This document shows positions 1 through 10,781 of a stretch of 64,000 nt of DNA, piece by piece. Source of the DNA: Minisyncoccota bacterium (lineage in GTDB: Bacteria; Patescibacteriota; Minisyncoccia; Phycocordibacterales; UBA5272); assembly GCA_046350775.1 (NCBI GenBank), contig JAXLZS010000001.1:90441-154440 (forward strand), written 5' to 3'. A program made the position numbers and the translations under genes. The notes beneath the pieces were generated by a model. The model saw nothing but the letters and a program-made list of their open reading frames with translations. It ran no database searches and had not been told where the DNA came from. How positions within the stretch are numbered: the stretch's first letter is position 1; every line of letters begins with the position of its first letter.

Positions 1-1458
1 GGAGGATTTTCTGGAACCAATCAGACTTCCAGAACAATCAAGGATTCTTATGCAACAGGAAATTTAACTTTGTCTGGTGGAGCAGGAGGTAATGGTGGCT
101 CTGGTGGAAGTGGTGGAAATGGTGGAAATGGTGTATCTGCCGGTACCGGAGGTAATGGTGGTAATTCAGGAACTGTTGGCGCTGGAACAGTAGGAGGAGT
201 TAAATATGGTGGTGGATTTACTGGCTATAATTTAGGTACAATTAGCAATGTTTATTCTTTAGGTAATGTGTCAGTTATAGGATCAGATGGTGGTGCGGCT
301 GGTAATGGAGGCACAGCTGGTAATGGTGCAAGTGGAGGAATAAGCGGTGCTGGGGGAGTAGGTGGTAATGAAGGAGCTACAGCAGCAGCTGGAGCTGGCG
401 GAGCTTTACATGCTGGAGGATTGATCGGATACAATTTTACAGGAGGTATAGTCCAGTATTCTTGGACTGCTGGCAATACTGTTTTGGCTACAGGTGGATC
501 AGGCGGATCTCCTGGCACAAGAGGTAATGGTGGTAATGGTGGAGCCGGAGGAACTCTTGCTGGTGGAAATGGTGGAACTGGTGTTGCTGGTAGTGCTGGA
601 GGAGCTGGAGGAACAAGTAATGTGGGAGGTTTGATTGGTTCTAATATTACTACAGGTTCTTTAAATACTAGTTACGCATCTACGACTGTTATAGTTATAG
701 GAGGAAATGGCTCGGTTGGTGGTGTTGGAGGAAATGGAGGCTCTGGTGGTGCTGGAGGATCAAGCGGATCAGGAAATGGCGGTACCGGACAAAATGGTTT
801 GATAGGTGGTGCGGGAGGAGCTGGAGGTTTGGTTGTTGCAGGTGGTTTAGTAGGAGATAATACTGGAATAATAACAAACGCTTATTCTAGTGGGAATGTC
901 ACAGCTACAGCCGGAAGTCCTGCTGTTGGTGGTACCGGTGGAAATGGAGGAAACGGAGGAGCTGCTGGAGGTGGAACAGTTGGAGCAAATGGTAGCGGTG
1001 GTAATGGTGGAGCCGGAGGTGCTGGTGCTAGTGCTTATGTCGGTGGACTTTTAGGTAGTCATGCAACTTCTCTCGTTACAAATACCTATTCTACTGGGGT
1101 ACCTTTAGCAAGTAAGACTTCAGGTGCTAATGGTGGTAGTGGAGGATTAAAAGGTGTTGGTGGATCTGGTGGAACTAATGGTAGTACTGGAACCACAGGA
1201 GCTTCCACAGCATTACAATATGCTGGAGGTATAGTGGGTAATCCGGTCAGTGGTACATGGTCTTCTAGTTATTGGAATACCAACACTTCAGGAAAAACTG
1301 ATGGAGCTGGAAATGCTACAACTCCAAGCAACACTTCAGGAAAAACTACTAATCAGATGAAGCAACAATCAACTTTTTCTGGTTGGGATTTTACTAGTTT
1401 TCCAACTTGGAAGATTATGGAGAATACCACATATCCATATTTTAATTATCAGACAGCT

Positions 1459-4400
1459 CCTGATGCTCCAATTATCGGTACAGCTACCGCTGGAAATGGA
1501 CAAGCAACAATTACATTTACACAGCCTGCAAATATTGGCGGAGCACCTATCACAAGTTATACAGTCACTTCGAATCCTGGCGGATTTACTGCATCAGCAG
1601 GCACTTCTCCAATTACGATTACTGGACTTACAAACGGTACTACATACACATTCACTGTTACTGCAACTAACGCATACGGCACAAGTATTTCTTCTGCTAC
1701 TACAAATTCCGTAACTCCTGCCACTGTTCCTGATGCCCCAACTATTGGTTCAGTAACTGCTGGAAATGGACAAGCAACAGTCATTCACTCCTCCAGTATC
1801 AAATGGAGGATCATCAATCACATATTACACTGTCACTTCAAGTGGAGGACAAACTGCTACAGGTGGATCATCACCAATTACAGTTCTAGGATTAAACAAC
1901 GGTACCACTTACACCTTCACAGTGACAGCTACAAACGTCACAGTTGGTACCAGTACTCCATCTTCTACAAGTAATTCCGTCACTCCTGCCACTGTTCCTG
2001 ATGCTCCAACAGGAGTCACAGCTGTTCGTGGAAATGGAGAGGCTTATATATCATTTACTCCAGGTAACAACGGAGGTTCAACTATTTTGTATTACACTGT
2101 CACTTCAAGTGGAGGACAAACTGCTACAGGTGGATCATCACCAATTACAGTGACAGGTCTTTCAAATGGTTCCTCATACACATTCACTGTTACTGCAACT
2201 AATATTGTAGGTACAAGTTCTTCTTCTACAATTAGTGCCCCAATAACTCCTGCTGTTCCTGATGCTCCAACTATTGGTTCAGTAACTGCTGGAAATGGAC
2301 AAGCAACAGTCACATTCACTCCTCCAGTATCAAATGGTGGATCATCAATCACATATTACACTGTCACTTCAAGTGGAGGACAAACTGCTACAGGTGGATC
2401 ATCACCAATTACAGTTCTAGGATTAAACAACGGTACCACTTACACCTTCACAGTGACAGCTACAAATGCAGTTGGTACCAGTACTCCATCTTCTACAAGT
2501 AATTCCGTCACTCCTGCCACTGTTCCTGATGCTCCAACAGGAGTCACAGCTGTTCGTGGAAATGGAGAAGCTTATATATCATTTACTCCAGGTAACAACG
2601 GAGGTTCAACTATTTTGTATTACACTGTCACTTCAGAGTGGAGGACAAACTGCTACAGGTGGATCATCACCAATTACAGTGACAGGTCTTTCAAATGGTT
2701 CCTCATACACATTCATGACACTGCAACTAATATTGTAGGTACAAGTTCTTCTTCTACAATTAGTGCCCCAATAACTCCTGCCACTGTTCCTGATGCTCCA
2801 ACTATTGGTTCAGTAACTGCTGGAAATGGACAAGCAACAGTCACATTCACTCCTCCAGTATCAAATGGTGGATCATCAATCACATATTACACTGTCACTT
2901 TAGTGGAGGACAAACTGCTACAGGTGGATCATCACCAATTGCAGTTCTAGAGTTAAACAACGGTACCACTTGCACACTTCACAGTGACAGCTACAAATGC
3001 AGTTGGTACTTGTTACTCATCTTCTACAAGTAATTCCGTAACTCCTGCCACTGTTCCTGATGCCCCAACAGGAGTCACAGCTGTTCGTGGAAATGGAAGC
3101 TTATATATCATTTTACTCCTGGAAACAATGGAGGCTCAACTGTTTTGTATTACACTGTCACTTCAAGTGGAGGACAAACTGCTACAGGTGGATCATCACC
3201 AATTACAGTTCTAGGATTAAACAACGGTACCACTTACACCTTCACAGTGACAGCTACAAGGCCCAAGTCGGCACCAGTACTCCATCTTCTACAAGTAATT
3301 CCGTCACTCCTGCCACTGTTCCTGATGCTCCAACTATTGGTTCAGTAACTGCTGGAAATGGACAAGCAACAGTCACATTCACTCCTCCAGTATCAAATGG
3401 AGGATCATCAATCACATATTACACTGTCACTTCAAGTGGAGGACAAACTGCTACAGGTGGATCATCACCAATTACAGTTCTAGGATTAAACAACGGTACC
3501 ACTTACACCTTTACAGTGACAGCTACAAATGCAGTTGGTACCAGTACTCCATCTTCTACAAGTAATTCCATCCTCCTGCCACTGTTCCTGATGCTCCAAC
3601 TATTGGTTCAGTAACTGCTGGAAATGGACAAGCAACAGTCACATTCACTCCTCCAGTATCAAATGGTGGATCATCAATCACATATTACACTGTCACTTCA
3701 AGTGGAGGACAAACTGCTACAGGTGGATCATCACCAATTACAGTTCTAGGATTAAACAACGGTACCACTTACACCTTCACAGTGACAGCTACAAATGCAG
3801 TTGGTACCAGTACTCCATCTTCTACAAGTAATTCCGTCACTCCTGCCACTGTTCCTGATGCTCCAACAGGAGTCACAGCTGTTCGTGGAAATGGAGAAGC
3901 ATATATCATTTACTCCAGGTAACAACGGAGGTTCAACTATTTTGTATTACACTGTCACTTCAAGTGGAGGACAAACTGCTACAGGTGGATCATCACCAAT
4001 TACAGTGACAGGTCTTTCAAATGGTTCTCATACACATTCTGTTACTGCAACTAATATTGTGGGTACAAGTTCTTCTTCTACAATTAGTGCCCCAATAACT
4101 CCTGCCACTGTTCCTGATGCTCCAACTATTGGTTCAGTAACTGCTGGAAATGGACAAGCAACAGTCACATTCACTCCTCCAGTATCAAATGGTGGATCAT
4201 CAATCACATATTACACTGTCACTTCAAGTGGAGGACAAACTGCTACAGGTGGATCATCACCAATTACAGTTCTAGGATTAAACAACAGTACCACTTACAC
4301 CTTTACAGTGACAGCTACAAATGCAGTCGGCACCAGTACTCCATCTTCTACAAGTAATTCCGTCACTCCTGCCACTGTTCCTGATGCTCCAACTATTGGT

Positions 4401-7050
4401 TCAGTAACTGCTGGAAATGGACAAGCAACAGTCACATTCATACTCAGTATCAAATGGTGGATCATCAATCACATATTACACTGTCACTTCAAGTGGAGGA
4501 CAAACTGCTACAGGTGGATCATCACCAATTACAGTTCTAGGATTAAACAACGGTACCACTTACACCTTCACAGTGACAGCTACAAATGCAGTTGGTACCA
4601 GTACTCCATCTTCTACAAGTAATTCCGTCACTCCTGCCACTGTTCCTGATGCTCCAACAGGAGTCACAGCTGTTCGTGGAAATGGAGAAGCTTATATATG
4701 TTTACTCCAGGTAACAACGGAGGTTCAACTATTTTGTATTACACTGTCACTTCAAGTGGAGGACAAACTGCTGAGTGGATCATCACCAATTACAGTGACA
4801 GGTCTTTCAAATGGTTCCTCATACACATTCACTGTTACTGCAACTAATATTGTAGGTACAAGTTCTTCTTCTACAATTAGTGCCCCAATAACTCCTGCCA
4901 CTGTTCCTGATGCTCCAACTATTGGTTCAGTAACTGCTGGAAATGGACAAGCAACAGTCACATTCACTCCTCCAGTATCAAATGGTGGATCATCAATCAC
5001 ATATTACACTGTCACTTCAAGTGGAGGACAAACTGCTACAGGTGGATCATCACCAATTACAGTTCTAGGATTAAACAACGGTACCACTTACACCTTTACA
5101 GTGACAGCTACAAATGCAGTTGGTACCAGTACTCCATCTTCTACAAAGTAATTCCGTAACTCCTGCCACTGTTCCTGATGCCCCAACAGGAGTCACAGCT
5201 GTTCGTGGAAATGGAGAAGCTTATATATCATTTACTCCTGGAAACAATGGAGGCTCAACTGTTTTGTATTACACTGTCACTTCAAGTGGAGGACAAACTG
5301 CTACAGGTGGATCATCACCAATTACAGTTCTAGGATTAAACAACGGTACCACTTACACCTTCACAGTGACAGCTACAAATGCAGTCGGCACCAGTACTCC
5401 ATCTTCTACAAGTAATTCCGTCACTCCTGCCACTGTTCCTGATGCTCCAACTATTGGTTCAGTAACTGCTGGAAATGGACAAGCAACAGTCACATTCACT
5501 CCTCCAGTATCAAATGGTGGATCATCAATCACATATTACACTGTCACTTCAAGTGGAGGACAAACTGCTACAGGTGGATCATCACCAATTACAGTTCTAG
5601 GATTAAACAACGGTACCACTTACACCTTCACAGTGACAGCTACAAATGCAGTCGGCACCAGTACTCCATCTTCTACAAGTAATTCCGTAACTCCTGCCAC
5701 TGTTCCTGATGCCCCAACTATTGGTTCAGTAACTGCTGGAAATGGACAAGCAACAGTCACATTCACTCCTCCAGTATCAAATGGAGGATCATCAATCACA
5801 TATTACACTGTCACTTCAAGTGGAGGACAAACTGCTACAGGTGGATCATCACCAATTACAGTTCTAGGATTAAACAACGGTACCACTTACACCTTTACAG
5901 TGACAGCTACAAATGCAGTTGGTACCAGTACTCCATCTTCTACAAGTAATTCCGTCACTCCTGCCACTGTTCCTGATGCTCCAACAGGAGTCACAGCTGT
6001 TCGTGGAAATGGAGAAGCTTATATATCATTTACTCCAGGTAACAACGGAGGTTCAACTATTTTGTATTACACTGTCACTTCAAGTGGAGGACAAACTGCT
6101 ACAGGTGGATCATCACCAATTACAGTGACAGGTCTTTCAAATGGTTCCTCATACACATTCACTGTTACTGCAACTAATATTGTAGGTACAAGTTCTTCTT
6201 CTACAATTAGTGCCCCAATAACTCCTGCCACTGTTCCTGATGCTCCAACTATTGGTTCAGTAACTGCTGGAAATGGACAAGCAACAGTCACATTCACTCC
6301 TCCAGTATCAAATGGTGGATCATCAATCACATATTACACTGTCACTTCAAGTGGAGGACAAACTGCTACAGGTGGATCATCACCAATTACAGTTCTAGGA
6401 TTAAACAACGGTACCACTTACACCTTTACAGTGACAGCTACAAATGCAGTTGGTACCAGTACTCCATCTTCTACAAGTAATTCCGTCACTCCTGCCACTG
6501 TTCCTGATGCTCCAACTAATGTTGCTGGAACTATTGGAAATGGAAGTGTTAGTGTTTCTTGGTCAGCTCCAGCTTCAAATGGAGGATCTCCTATAATTTT
6601 GTACACTGTCACAGCTAGTCCTGGAGGACAAACTGCTACTTCAACTGCTACAAATTTGACGATGACAGGATTAAACAATGGTACCACTTACACCTTTACA
6701 GTGACAGCTACAAATATTTACGGTACCAGTGTTTCTTCTGGTTCGAGTGCGGGTCTGACTCCAGCCGATGTTCCTGGTACTCCTACAAACTTGGCTGCGG
6801 TCGTAAGAGACTCTAGTATAGATCTTTCTTGGACAGCTCCAGCTTCAAATGGAGGTTCACCTTTAATTGATTATGTTATTCAATATAAACTTACAACAGG
6901 TGGGACTTGGACAACATTTGCTGACGGTATAAGTACTGTACCTGCTGTGACGATCACAAGTTTATCAAACAACAATTCTTATGACTTTCGTGTTTATGCA
7001 AAAAATATTGTAGGAACAAGTTCTCCTTCTACTCAAGTCAGTGCCGCTCC
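1459..7050 (+). repeat. Coding tandem array with a period of ~261-270 nt. About 18 copies are near-identical and alternate between subtype A (PDAPTIGSVTAGNGQATVTFTPPVSNGG...) and subtype B (PDAPTGVTAVRGNGEAYISFTPGNNGG...). Three more divergent FN3-like copies lie at the ends.
   Basis: Identical ~50-nt strings recur at ~1738, 2267, 2798, 3331, 3598, 4117, 4387, 4909, 5449, 5707 and 6247 for type A, and at ~2006, 2541, 3071, 3859, 4660, 5185 and 5980 for type B. Each unit carries the FN3-like consensus TYTFTVTATN. Confidence 0.9.
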
Positions 7051-7489
7051 TGGTGCTCCAGCACAAGTTTTGATTCAGAGTTTCAGTAATTTGACTACAC
7101 CAAACATAGCTACTTTGGTACGTATTACAAATGAAGGTTCTGTCGCTTATGAGTACACATATACATGGTGTGTTACGAATTCTTCTACGAATACTTGTGG
7201 AGGAGGAGACGACATCTTCAGTTCTACTGCTGCAAAATTGATTCAGCCTGGAGCGAATTTTGACACAACATTGACTTCAACAGTGCCGACAGCTGGTAAT
7301 TATTTCTTCCATATAAATGTTCAATTTGGATCTGATTCTTCAACAGCTAAACAATCATTTACAGCTACAACAGTTACCACTCCAGTGACTCCACCAAGTG
7401 GGGGTGGAGGAGGTGGTGGCGGTGGAGGGGGAGGTTCTCCTTTACCGGTAGTTGATGTGCCTGCCACAAACACTTCTTGTATCGGAGCA

Positions 7490-7650
7490 GATTTCAATCA
7501 TGATGGAAAAGTAAACTCTGTAGACTTTTCAATTATGTTAGCATTTTGGAAGACAGCTTATCCATTCAAAAATGCTTGTGTGGATATAAACAAGGATAAA
7601 CAAGTAAACTCTGTAGACTTTTCAATTCTACTTTATCAATGGGGAAAAGA
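7490..7650 (+). other. Type-I dockerin module made of two 22-aa Ca-binding repeats, DFNHDGKVNSVDFSIMLAFW and DINKDKQVNSVDFSILLYQW.
   Basis: It has the canonical dockerin loop D-x-N/D-x-D-G/K-x-V-N-x-x-D followed by a helix, present twice. A 24-nt string, gtaaactctgtagacttttcaatt, is duplicated at 7511 and 7604. Confidence 0.8.
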
Positions 7651-7687
7651 TCCTGTATTATTTAAAAAAGATTAATAAACAATAATT

Positions 7688-8308
7688 ATGAATAAAAAAT
7701 ATTTATTATATATAATGTTTACATTTATTGGATTAAAATTATTTTTCTTACCACAAAATATTTTTGCGGCAGAATTAAATTTTAAAATCCTATCAGACAA
7801 AAGTTCAGATCCAGCTTCTAAAGTAGTCGAAGTACGCATAGATCCAAAAGGAAAAATGTTAAATGTTATAGATGGTGTTATATCTTTTGACGGATCAGGT
7901 TCAGACAATCTTTATGTGCAAGTTGAAAATGGAAATTCTATTCTATCTCTTTGGCCTACGCCACCAATTTACGATAAAGATAGTAAATCTATCCATTTTA
8001 TAGGTGGAATTCCAAATGGATTTGATAAAGAAGGCTTACTTTTTGTCTTAAAGATAGATCAAAAGTCCGCAGGCGATTTATCAGTTTTATTTTCAAACGG
8101 TTTTGCTTATTTAAATGACGGTAAAGGCACTCAAGAAAATATTTCTTCTAGTCCTCTTGCTATTAGTGGGAATCTTGTTAAGACTGGAAAAGTTTTTGAG
8201 ATCAATAAAAAAATTATTAACATAAAAGATGTTATAATAATTTTATCTGTTATAGTCATAGCTATTTTTACAATTTTTTATGTATATAAAAAAAATATTA
8301 AAAAATAA
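7688..8308 (+). CDS. Secreted, C-terminally TM-anchored protein carrying one cohesin-like beta-sandwich domain.
   Basis: There is an N-terminal signal peptide (MNKKYLLYIMFTFIGLKLFFLPQNIFA) and a C-terminal hydrophobic anchor (IIILSVIVIAIFTIFYVYKK). The central ~140 aa are homologous to the N-terminal domain of the next gene, e.g. SLWPTPP...IHFIGGIPNGF matches SLWVEDPA...ITFNGGLPTPG. Confidence 0.6.
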   Translation: MNKKYLLYIMFTFIGLKLFFLPQNIFAAELNFKILSDKSSDPASKVVEVRIDPKGKMLNVIDGVISFDGSGSDNLYVQVENGNSILSLWPTPPIYDKDSKSIHFIGGIPNGFDKEGLLFVLKIDQKSAGDLSVLFSNGFAYLNDGKGTQENISSSPLAISGNLVKTGKVFEINKKIINIKDVIIILSVIVIAIFTIFYVYKKNIKK

Positions 8309-9995
8309 AATATTCTTCATTAGGACAATATTATTTTTTATTTTTGTTTTTTCTTCATGTCTTTATACTGAGGCCGCGATTCTAAAAATAAATTCAAATG
8401 TTTCCACTCTTTCAGTTGGTGACACTGCTACTATAAGTGTATTTTTAAATTCTGAAGGTTTTGCTGTCAATAATGTAGAAGCAGTTTTGCAATATCCTAC
8501 CGATATGCTTGATGTCTTATCTGTCAGCAAGAGTAGTTCTATATTTTCTCTCTGGGTAGAAGACCCTGCTTTTTCAAACAATTCAGGTACTATAACATTC
8601 AATGGAGGATTACCTACTCCAGGATATAGTGGATCACAAGGATTAGTTGTGACTTTTGTTGTCAAAGCCAAAAAAGCCGGATCTGCTAATATTTCTTTTT
8701 CTAGTGCTGCCGCCAGAGCAAATGATGGTCTTGGTACAGATGTTTTAAATAGTAAAACAGGTAAAACTCTCACAATAAATGAATCCTTAAAACCAGTCGT
8801 AGAAGAGACGAAGCCTACTACTCCTACCACGACTCAGACTTCTACTTCTATACAGATAACTTCAACTTCTCATCCAGATCAAGATAGTTGGTATAAAGAT
8901 AATACGCCTACATTTAAGTGGAATATACCTTCAGGAGCTAATGCAGTTCAGACAACTATAGACAACAATACTTCTGGAGTACCACATGTCACTTATAGTC
9001 CAGCAATAGATAGTAAAACTGTAGACAAAGTAAAAGATGGAGTTTGGTATTTTAAGGTGCGTGCTCGCAAAGATGGTGTTTGGGGATCGACAAGTAAATA
9101 TATAGTCAGAGTTGATACCGTCGCTCCACAATTAAAATCTACTTCTTTTGATTACGATGATAAATCAAAAATTTTAAGTATAAATGTAGACGCTCAAGAT
9201 TCTACTTCTGGTATAGATCATTATGATGTCATAATTAATAATGTTTTAATAAAGAGTATTTCAGCAAAAGATTTTGTAAATGGAAAGTATTCTCTACCTT
9301 TCAGTAACTCAGGAAGTAATAAAGTAAAATTGGTCGTATATGATAAAGCTGGCAACAGTGTAGAATCCGATACTTCTTCATTTGAATCTACAAGTTCTAT
9401 AGCTCCAAAACTTAATGATATTCCAAGTCTAGTATCTGCTAATGAAAATCTGATAGTCAGCGGCTCTATACAAAGTGCAAATACTAATCTTTTAGTCAAA
9501 TTTAGAAAAGATGAAGGACAAGAAATAATTCTAGAAGTAAAATCAAATGCAAATGGAGATTTCTTAGTCTTATTACCTAAATTGGAGTCTGGTAATTATG
9601 AAATCTGGGCAGAATCTATTAACGGAGCTCAGTCTGAACATATAAATACAAAAGCTATATCACAAACTATAGTCACTATAGGTAGCTACAGCTTTACTTT
9701 GCTTTACTTGATTATTGTGGTTTTAGTTTTGATGATATTATCTTTCTACTTTGGACACTATCTGACCATAAAATTGAGACCTAGACGCAGACAGAGATCC
9801 AGACCTCTATCAGCAAGAAGAGATCATTCTAGGACTCTAAGTCTATTAAAGAAAAATCTTGAGAGACATTTAGAGATATTGCAAAATATTAGACATGATC
9901 GTCTTTTGACTAAAGAAGAAAGAGAGATGAAAGAAAATATAGAAGGCGGTCTCGATGAGATAGATCAAGTATTATTAAAAGGGGATAATAAATAA
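8280..9995 (+). CDS. Type-I membrane protein. It has a signal peptide, a cohesin-like domain, a Thr-rich linker, Ig-like/beta domains, a single TM helix, and an Arg-rich, acidic coiled-coil cytoplasmic tail.
   Basis: The N-terminal domain LKINSNVSTLSVGDTATISVFLNSEGFAVNNVEAVLQYPTDMLDVLSV fits the cohesin pattern V.I....GDTV.IPV.....N....L.YD...L. This is followed by TKPTTPTTTQTST, the TM segment FTLLYLIIVVLVLMILSFYF, and RPRRRQRSRPLSARRDH. Confidence 0.6.
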   Translation: MYIKKILKNKIFFIRTILFFIFVFSSCLYTEAAILKINSNVSTLSVGDTATISVFLNSEGFAVNNVEAVLQYPTDMLDVLSVSKSSSIFSLWVEDPAFSNNSGTITFNGGLPTPGYSGSQGLVVTFVVKAKKAGSANISFSSAAARANDGLGTDVLNSKTGKTLTINESLKPVVEETKPTTPTTTQTSTSIQITSTSHPDQDSWYKDNTPTFKWNIPSGANAVQTTIDNNTSGVPHVTYSPAIDSKTVDKVKDGVWYFKVRARKDGVWGSTSKYIVRVDTVAPQLKSTSFDYDDKSKILSINVDAQDSTSGIDHYDVIINNVLIKSISAKDFVNGKYSLPFSNSGSNKVKLVVYDKAGNSVESDTSSFESTSSIAPKLNDIPSLVSANENLIVSGSIQSANTNLLVKFRKDEGQEIILEVKSNANGDFLVLLPKLESGNYEIWAESINGAQSEHINTKAISQTIVTIGSYSFTLLYLIIVVLVLMILSFYFGHYLTIKLRPRRRQRSRPLSARRDHSRTLSLLKKNLERHLEILQNIRHDRLLTKEEREMKENIEGGLDEIDQVLLKGDNK

Positions 9996-10148
9996 AAATA
10001 TTTTCAAAGAAAAATAGATATCCTACGATATCTATTTTTCTTTTGCCTGTCAACAATGTCTTTTTATTTTTTGGTGTATAATATATTTATATAAAAATTT
10101 ATTTTTTAATTGATAATTTAAATCTAAATTTATTAGATATTTTATTTT

Positions 10149-10781
10149 ATGGACTTTATAGGTCATTCAATGTTGGTTTCAAGTGGATTAGGATCTTTTT
10201 GGAGCTATTTGATAATACTTTTTTTAGCTTTCTTGGATACAGTATTTGTGATCGGTACTATTTTCCCTGGTAGCCTCATGGTCATGGGTATTGGATTTTT
10301 AGCGGCCTTTTCGGTTTTAAATGTTTGGGTTTGTCTTTTCTTTGTGGTGCTTGGCGGACTATGCGGTGACGCATTGACTTATTTTTTTGGAACTCATGGC
10401 ACAAATTGGTTTAAAAATGAAAGTAAATTATTAAAGTTTACTTATCTTAAAAAAGGTCAAGATTTTTTTGAAAAGCATGGAGACAAAAGTATTGTCCTTG
10501 GCAGATTTATGGGAGTTATAAAAGCCGTCGTACCTTTTGTGGCAGGACTTGTGCGTATGGATTTTAAGAAGTTTATTTATTTAAATCTTATTTCAGGGTT
10601 TATCTGGGCTGTACTTTATTTGGGTCTCGGATTCTTTTTGGGAGTGTCTATGGATAGATTTGTCGTGCCAAAAGATTTAAAAATCTTGATAGTTGCTTTA
10701 CCTTTTGTCATCTTTTTTGTTTGGATTATATTTGAATCTAGGACAAAATTATTTAAAGCAGTCAAAAGATTTTTCCGTTAA
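10149..10781 (+). CDS. DedA / SNARE-associated (VTT-domain) membrane protein.
   Basis: Multi-TM protein with the motif IVLGRFMGVIKAVVPFVAGLVRMDFKKF. Confidence 0.7.
   Translation: MDFIGHSMLVSSGLGSFWSYLIILFLAFLDTVFVIGTIFPGSLMVMGIGFLAAFSVLNVWVCLFFVVLGGLCGDALTYFFGTHGTNWFKNESKLLKFTYLKKGQDFFEKHGDKSIVLGRFMGVIKAVVPFVAGLVRMDFKKFIYLNLISGFIWAVLYLGLGFFLGVSMDRFVVPKDLKILIVALPFVIFFVWIIFESRTKLFKAVKRFFR

Follow-up and report, generated by a model that had tools for sequence, protein, structure and literature searches.

We analyzed a 64,000-nucleotide (nt) stretch of contig JAXLZS010000001.1 from a Minisyncoccota bacterium (the window), focusing on three genes that encode a long, dockerin-tipped cargo protein and two membrane-anchored proteins. 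Open reading frame (ORF) calling placed three ORFs on the + strand at 5114-7675 (853 amino acids, aa), 7688-8308 (206 aa), and 8280-9995 (571 aa). A 12-nt gap separates the stop of the cargo ORF from the start of the second ORF, with which it shares a reading frame, while the second and third genes, hereafter the small and large anchors, overlap by 29 nt. A scan of 7300-10300 gave no promoter or terminator signal above shuffled expectation and no terminator-like site between the three genes, and it was uninformative overall. We consider it likely that the three genes together constitute a cassette for surface display in a Paceibacterota bacterium (Candidate Phyla Radiation, CPR/Patescibacteria), made up of a nonenzymatic fiber and two transmembrane (TM) cohesin anchors.

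Cargo gene and its dockerin

An earlier note on this DNA, made from the sequence alone, had reported a duplicated type I dockerin at the end of the cargo protein, and Pfam bears this out: Dockerin_1 (PF00404) matched aa 793 to 839 of the 853-aa ORF with 34.8 bits, against a gathering cutoff of 22.9. The domain (7490-7642, + strand) is built from two 20-residue repeats, DFNHDGKVNSVDFSIMLAFW (nt 7490-7549) and DINKDKQVNSVDFSILLYQW (nt 7583-7642), each of which has an EF-hand-like loop of the form D-x-N-x-D-x3-N-x2-D followed by a DFSI(M/L)L helix. The loops, DFNHDGKVNSVD and DINKDKQVNSVD, carry Asp or Asn at positions 1, 3, 5, 9, and 12, and in a consensus from 58 loci D1, D5, D12, and the FSI motif are each kept at 90% or more. 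A conserved Cys pair flanks the first repeat (window 7478-7590; C-x-G-A-D-F-N ... K-N-x-C-x-D-x-N) and is present in most cargo proteins of the main group of related cassettes; it could form a disulfide clasp joining the two repeats. Upstream of the dockerin lies a linker of 12 consecutive Gly residues (7400-7435, + strand), which agrees with the 12 to 13 residues noted earlier, and Gly-rich linkers of about 4 to 23 residues occur in the main group of related cargo proteins. Directly before the linker is a conserved beta domain of about 115 aa that contains a Cys pair (WCVTNSSTNTC; 7049-7399, + strand).

The same note had treated 5114 as the start of a giant adhesin gene, but that position marks only its last in-frame piece, since the gene is already open at the first base of the window and continues beyond its 5' end. 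The last uninterrupted cargo ORF (5114-7675, + strand) holds seven FN3 domains, found by Pfam as seven stretches (E 2.2e-62), followed by the beta domain, the poly-Gly linker, and the dockerin. Over 1456-6500 (+ strand), 19 FN3 units of two alternating types, nearly identical and either 264 or 267 nt long, form an array for which Tandem Repeats Finder (TRF) gave a period of 267 and 18.2 copies. This array is preceded by a Gly-rich repeat region of the cargo gene in frame 1 (1-1455, + strand), open to the 5' end of the window. The best explanation of these parts is a fiber in which a Gly-rich head is followed by about 21 FN3 domains, the beta domain, a hinge of poly-Gly, and, at the C terminus, the type I dockerin. 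Within the Gly-rich region, GGxGGxGG blocks alternate with GGLIGYN...Y..G.V motifs, and the region ends in ...QMKQQSTFSGWDFTSFPTWKI...YPYF. It may resemble the GLUG-motif beta-helix adhesins, although a Pfam scan that included the ORF at 70-1974 gave no match in 1-1455 and none to GLUG. A homologue search with this part returned only five fragmentary matches.

Cohesin-fold domains and topology of the anchors

The proteins encoded by the two downstream genes both have a hydrophobic, signal-like N-terminal segment and a C-terminal TM helix, as the earlier note had described. Across the two anchor families, the N-terminal segment carries a conserved FAAE/EAA site and the TM helix is followed by basic residues. 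From the combination of the two segments, we predict that both anchors are type I membrane proteins that would display a cohesin domain outside the cell, the small one close to the membrane and the large one on a stalk. In the small anchor (7688-8308, + strand), the hydrophobic N-terminal helix and its conserved FAAE motif lead into a cohesin-fold domain at aa 28 to 161 (nt 7769-8170), a disordered linker of about 15 residues, and a TM helix at aa 179 to 205 (nt 8222-8302) that ends in a KKNIKK tail. In the large anchor (8280-9995, + strand), a signal-like N terminus is followed by a cohesin domain at aa 33 to 168 (nt 8376-8783), a Thr/Pro linker (8787-8855), an Ig-like stalk of about 280 residues (8859-9689), a TM helix (9690-9770), and a cytoplasmic tail of 74 residues (9771-9992). 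The stalk gave Pfam matches to Big_13 and DUF7743 that were just below the cutoffs of these families. The tail consists of a basic stretch (RPRRRQRSRPLSARRD) and a helical or coiled region in which R541 and E547 are invariant, and its conservation suggests a cytoplasmic partner or a signaling link. A Pfam scan of the anchors gave no SLH or LPXTG-type match. We also found five proteins of 1,700 to 5,271 aa (P0197, P0198, P0200, P0203, and P0302) in which 13 to 37 stretches match the part of the large-anchor profile that covers the Ig stalk; the stalk domain is therefore also a repeat unit in very large proteins.

The N-terminal domains of the two anchors are related to each other, as had been noticed from the sequence: BLASTP aligned them at 30% identity over 135 aa (E 5e-9), and hhalign of the two anchor-family alignments gave a probability of 100% (E 4.8e-43). 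Searches of PDB sequences with the anchors yielded only weak, Ig-like matches to the stalk, and because no cohesin was found in this way, the fold was tested by structure prediction. The AlphaFold2 (AF2) model of the large-anchor domain had a predicted local distance difference test (pLDDT) score of 91.4. When this model was compared with the PDB by Foldseek, the top 50 matches were all cohesins, the best being 1g1k (E 1.8e-8), with template modeling scores (TM-scores) of up to 0.73 (4dh2). The structure of Ruminococcus flavefaciens ScaE, 2zf9, was also among the structure-comparison matches. Two independent structure-comparison methods identified the cohesin fold, a nine-stranded flattened beta-sandwich of jelly-roll type, in both anchors. 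Homologues of the large anchor point the same way, with 11 of 32 aligned family members matching the Pfam Cohesin family (PF00963) at an E value of 0.01 or lower and eight scanned homologues (35 to 48% identical; alignment A1) exceeding its cutoff, at 25.0 to 27.7 versus 24.1 bits.

The predicted structures thus establish a cohesin fold for both anchors, which would form a divergent subfamily. The cohesin assignment made in the earlier note stands because of these homologues and the predicted fold and not because of the sequence pattern quoted for it. The Pfam check proposed there found Dockerin_1 in the cargo and Cohesin in neither anchor; of the two cohesin marks that were named, a PF00963 match and a cohesin-like fold, it is the fold that was found. 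The 571-aa protein is identical to NCBI MFO0743524.1 of a Candidatus Paceibacterota genome, a protein that the Prokaryotic Genome Annotation Pipeline (NCBI/PGAP) calls a "cohesin domain-containing protein." It is the only part of the cassette so named in the databases, since the small anchor carries the label "hypothetical" and the cargo gene is interrupted.

In type I cohesins, the dockerin is bound by the sheet formed by strands 8-3-6-5, as in the Clostridium thermocellum complex (PDB 1ohz). Conservation in the large-anchor family peaks on strands 3, 5, 6, and 8, with values of 0.72 to 0.86 compared to 0.48 to 0.64 on the other strands.

Distribution and conservation of the cassette

The three-gene order suggested for comparison in the earlier note is found in related genomes. 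In two of these, a cargo of 5,194 or 6,183 aa, a protein of 292 or 221 aa, and a protein of 570 or 552 aa follow one another in this order between unrelated flanks, and the 6,183-aa cargo has a C-terminal makeup like that of the window cargo, with the same beta domain, a run of Gly, and a duplicated dockerin. A scan for the small-anchor family in one genome per GTDB species gave 59 loci, in genomes labeled Wolfe-, Falkow-, Nomura-, Kaiser-, and Adlerbacteria, Paceibacteria, Parcubacteria, and Minisyncoccia, with many carrying the automatic label "Saccharibacteria." We then surveyed 61 Patescibacteria loci, searching every stop-to-stop segment with the window dockerin and with hidden Markov models (HMMs) of the anchor families. 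At about 45 of the 61 loci, a dockerin-ending ORF stops no more than about 60 nt before the small cohesin gene, with differing flanking genes, and the large anchor comes directly next in nearly all loci with enough sequence. A variant arrangement, seen in 10 loci, has a dockerin protein of about 370 aa 1.5 to 3 kb upstream and a third cohesin gene downstream, while the remaining loci are mostly cut off by contig ends. The large-anchor profile matched 3,256 representatives (50%-identity clusters) at an E value of 1e-30 or lower, and among the best 150, a majority match once and at full length (550 to 600 aa).

All 10 complete cargo proteins from other genomes pass the dockerin cutoff (23.0 to 37.0 bits), while their bodies are built from different beta domains (FN3, MG2, Big_6, DUF4215, and CarboxypepD_reg-like) and cargo length ranges from about 300 to more than 6,000 aa across loci. 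When the window proteins were compared with their counterparts in 17 main-group genomes, mean identity was 80% for the dockerin, 73% for the beta domain before the linker, 59% for the large cohesin, 52% for the small cohesin, and 44% for the stalk. By this measure, the dockerin plug is the most constrained part of the system. The beta domain, which has no family assignment, is more conserved than either cohesin and is a possible X-module analogue, that is, an X-module-like partner of the dockerin.

The variant cassettes (10 loci) also encode a protein of 250 to 260 aa in which a cohesin at the N terminus is combined with a dockerin at the C terminus (L045 13338-14090 and L057 12380-13159), with Dockerin_1 scores of 22.2 bits in L045 and 24.3 bits in L057. 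By analogy, such a protein would be an adaptor in cellulosome terms. The adaptor-bearing cassettes also encode a dockerin cargo of about 375 aa, a secreted protein of 383 aa, and a coiled-coil protein of 223 aa. Minimal cassettes of two genes were found as well (L018 9014-10885 and L026 8746-10966), consisting of a cargo of 326 or 411 aa and one TM-anchored cohesin-plus-Ig protein, with no large anchor in either. Just upstream of the cargo in L018 (8387-9007), L026 (7621-8682), and L045 (6051-7016) is a secreted, beta-rich protein that has a TM helix at its C terminus and matches no Pfam family. It may be a further component of the system, and the matching position at our locus lies off the 5' end of the window. 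Four loci (L020, L031, L053, and L060) have the cassette in bins labeled Flavobacteriaceae or Gammaproteobacteria, with a GC content that is not separable from the rest; these are probably mislabeled or misbinned contigs. The window itself is AT-rich, with a GC content of about 30% outside the repeat region. Eight tRNA genes are spread over 15577-63267, and besides these no match reached the Rfam threshold in the window.

Proposed display mechanism and comparison with known systems

The analysis shows the domain identities, the predicted folds, the membrane topology read from the sequence, and the conserved gene order. From them, we infer that the dockerin binds an anchor cohesin in a calcium-dependent manner, with one or other cohesin as its chosen partner, and that the fiber has a role in host attachment. 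In the proposed mechanism, the fiber would be exported first, and its calcium-loaded dockerin would then plug noncovalently into a cohesin fixed in the producer's own membrane. This C-terminal tether would leave the variable fiber body projecting outward, with the poly-Gly run acting as a free hinge. The small anchor would keep its cohesin near the membrane, at a distance of about 15 residues, whereas the large anchor would carry it atop the Thr/Pro linker and Ig-like stalk, with a reach through the wall or S-layer, and would be linked to the cytoplasm through its conserved tail. As to why there are two anchors, we can only speculate that they offer alternative docking heights, let the fiber pass from the membrane-proximal cohesin to the stalked one, or serve different partners. 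For an episymbiotic lineage, it is plausible that the fiber helps to grip a host cell, and this role fits the variability of the cargo versus the constancy of the plug.

Several observations weigh against such a display system. Neither anchor matched PF00963, even at an E value of up to 1, and an NCBIfam scan of both gave no cohesin match; phmmer searches of PDB sequences with the anchors and the family profiles (A1 and A2) likewise returned no solved cohesin. Conservation in the small-anchor family is not concentrated on the expected binding face, where the pattern is weak. Since a single dockerin faces two cohesins at the locus, one cohesin or both may bind a different partner or do something else. 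In the Saccharibacterium Southlakia epibionticum, the Ig-rich dockerin protein SEML1_0315 is essential (PMC10633639), and its gene has no adjacent cohesin gene, its neighbors being a hydrolase and a tRNA; the word "cohesin" is also absent from the supplements of that paper. Finally, the assembled cargo gene is frameshifted, which, if not an assembly artifact, would leave this organism with a defunct system.

Real frameshifts would mean that the cassette is decaying in this genome, with the cargo a true pseudogene and no functional fiber to be docked, even as the system works in relatives. The cargo frame shows at least six net changes, which split the gene into at least six frames; alignment of the FN3 units places about 16 indels of 1 to 3 nt in it, all between 1726 and 5171, and the exact 853-aa ORF is missing from the protein collection in which both anchors are present. 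However, the indels are confined to the interior of the near-identical array, whereas none occur in the units at 5171-6500, in the unique 3' part, or in the Gly-rich 5' part, and many indels stand beside small local base scrambles of a kind typical of consensus errors. Independent short-read contigs from this organism match the window with 100% identity starting at 6686 or 6698 and break off exactly at the array edge, so the array interior is not polishable with short reads. The remainder of the window contains long intact ORFs, and homologous cargo genes elsewhere are uninterrupted over 3,300 to 6,183 codons. Because of these last three findings, we are fairly confident that the frameshifts are consensus errors in an unpolishable repeat rather than gene decay, and we regard a decaying cassette as unlikely.

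Cohesin-like folds are also known in proteins that have no dockerin partner, and the anchor domains could instead be structural or ligand-binding modules that serve the fiber differently, for instance as export or assembly helpers or as a separate adhesin, with the dockerin binding something else, such as a cohesin encoded elsewhere in the genome or a host surface component. The presence of two cohesins per dockerin, the strong divergence of the cohesin sequences from PF00963 and from PDB entries searched by profile, and the Southlakia dockerin protein without an adjacent cohesin would all suit such roles. Yet the dockerin and cohesin genes stay adjacent and co-oriented at about 45 of 61 loci despite changing flanks, no element of the cassette is better conserved than the dockerin, cohesin and dockerin are combined in single proteins of variant cassettes, and conservation of the large anchor falls on the canonical binding-sheet strands, so that we judge it quite improbable that these domains are not dockerin receptors. 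Dockerins and cohesins are hallmark cellulosome modules, and the Southlakia paper speculates that proteins of this sort target host glycans (PMC10633639), which would be in keeping with a miniature cellulosome-like enzyme complex that degrades polysaccharide or the host cell wall. The cassette lacks the makings of one, however: there is no multi-cohesin scaffoldin but one cohesin per anchor, there is usually one dockerin protein per locus within ±10 kb, and Pfam found no catalytic or carbohydrate-binding domain in the window cargo or in the 10 complete cargo proteins from other genomes. We rejected this reading because none of these 11 cargo proteins has a catalytic domain, and we consider it extremely unlikely.

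If the three genes are a surface-display cassette, they might further represent a lineage-wide, Paceibacteria-type surface organelle, in which a two-tier membrane dock, with one short cohesin and one stalked cohesin connected to the cytoplasm by its conserved tail, would carry interchangeable dockerin-tipped fibers, at times lengthened by cohesin-dockerin adaptors, and the fiber body would be the fast-evolving part that recognizes the host. Such an enzyme-free "adhesosome," following the logic of the cellulosome, would be the main host-gripping device of these cells, a broader proposal that we put forward tentatively and hold to be doubtful at present.

To our knowledge, the means by which ultra-small CPR/Patescibacteria attach to hosts are largely obscure outside the type IV pili of Saccharibacteria. 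The cassette is a concrete and easily testable candidate for CPR surface attachment, with three small recombinant modules and a predicted Ca/EDTA (ethylenediaminetetraacetic acid) switch as the handle. A variable cargo of about 300 to more than 6,000 aa on a constant plug is what would be expected of a host-specificity determinant on a conserved anchor. If the proposal holds, it would extend cohesin-dockerin biology to TM-anchored, enzyme-free fiber display and offer new orthogonal cohesin-dockerin pairs for protein engineering. It would also give a context for the unexplained essentiality of the Ig-rich dockerin protein of Southlakia epibionticum, the only genetically tractable relative (PMC10633639). 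A full-text literature search on cohesins and dockerins in CPR/Patescibacteria returned no description of the cassette.

Cohesins and dockerins outside cellulosomes are well known in bacteria and archaea, including anaerobic methanotrophic (ANME) archaea (PMC9012536), and such noncellulosomal modules are the subject of a survey by Peer et al. 2009, as cited there. The known examples, such as the Archaeoglobus fulgidus cohesin (2xdh), the toxin-complex cohesins of Clostridium perfringens (2vo8, 2jh2, and 2w1n), and those of ANME archaea, are scattered genes or enzyme-enzyme pairs. In contrast, the genes described here form an operon-like cargo-anchor-anchor cassette that is TM anchored, occurs in many Patescibacteria lineages, and has interchangeable cargo bodies. 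Cellulosomes are attached to cells through SLH repeats or sortase/LPXTG signals, whereas both anchors here end in a TM helix and basic residues. The variant cassettes share the logic of adaptor scaffoldins such as ScaA/ScaB of Acetivibrio cellulolyticus (PDB 3l8q and 3fnk), in which assembly is extended by one tier, but each of their adaptors has one cohesin, arrays that integrate enzymes are lacking, and no adaptor is present in the window.

By analogy, the closest functional counterparts would be the anchoring scaffoldins with a single cohesin. Those of the type of OlpA, OlpC, and SdbA of C. thermocellum (PDB 4dh2, 3ul4, and 2bm3) are SLH anchored and have a Pro/Thr-rich linker, while the present system has C-terminal TM helices, with a cytoplasmic tail on the large anchor, and a poly-Gly linker; its cargo is a nonenzymatic fiber, and its host is a wall-reduced, ultra-small cell with no cellulolytic genes in view. 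The nearest of all would be the ScaE-CttA pair of R. flavefaciens, in which a sortase-anchored cohesin docks a noncatalytic adhesin by its dockerin. ScaE is joined covalently to the wall by sortase and uses a type III cohesin for an X-dockerin, whereas our locus encodes two TM anchors of unequal height in a three-gene cassette. In the ScaE-CttA pair, a dockerin-bearing adhesin is held on the surface of its producer by a dedicated single-cohesin anchor, and the Patescibacteria cassette would work likewise if its dockerin binds as proposed.

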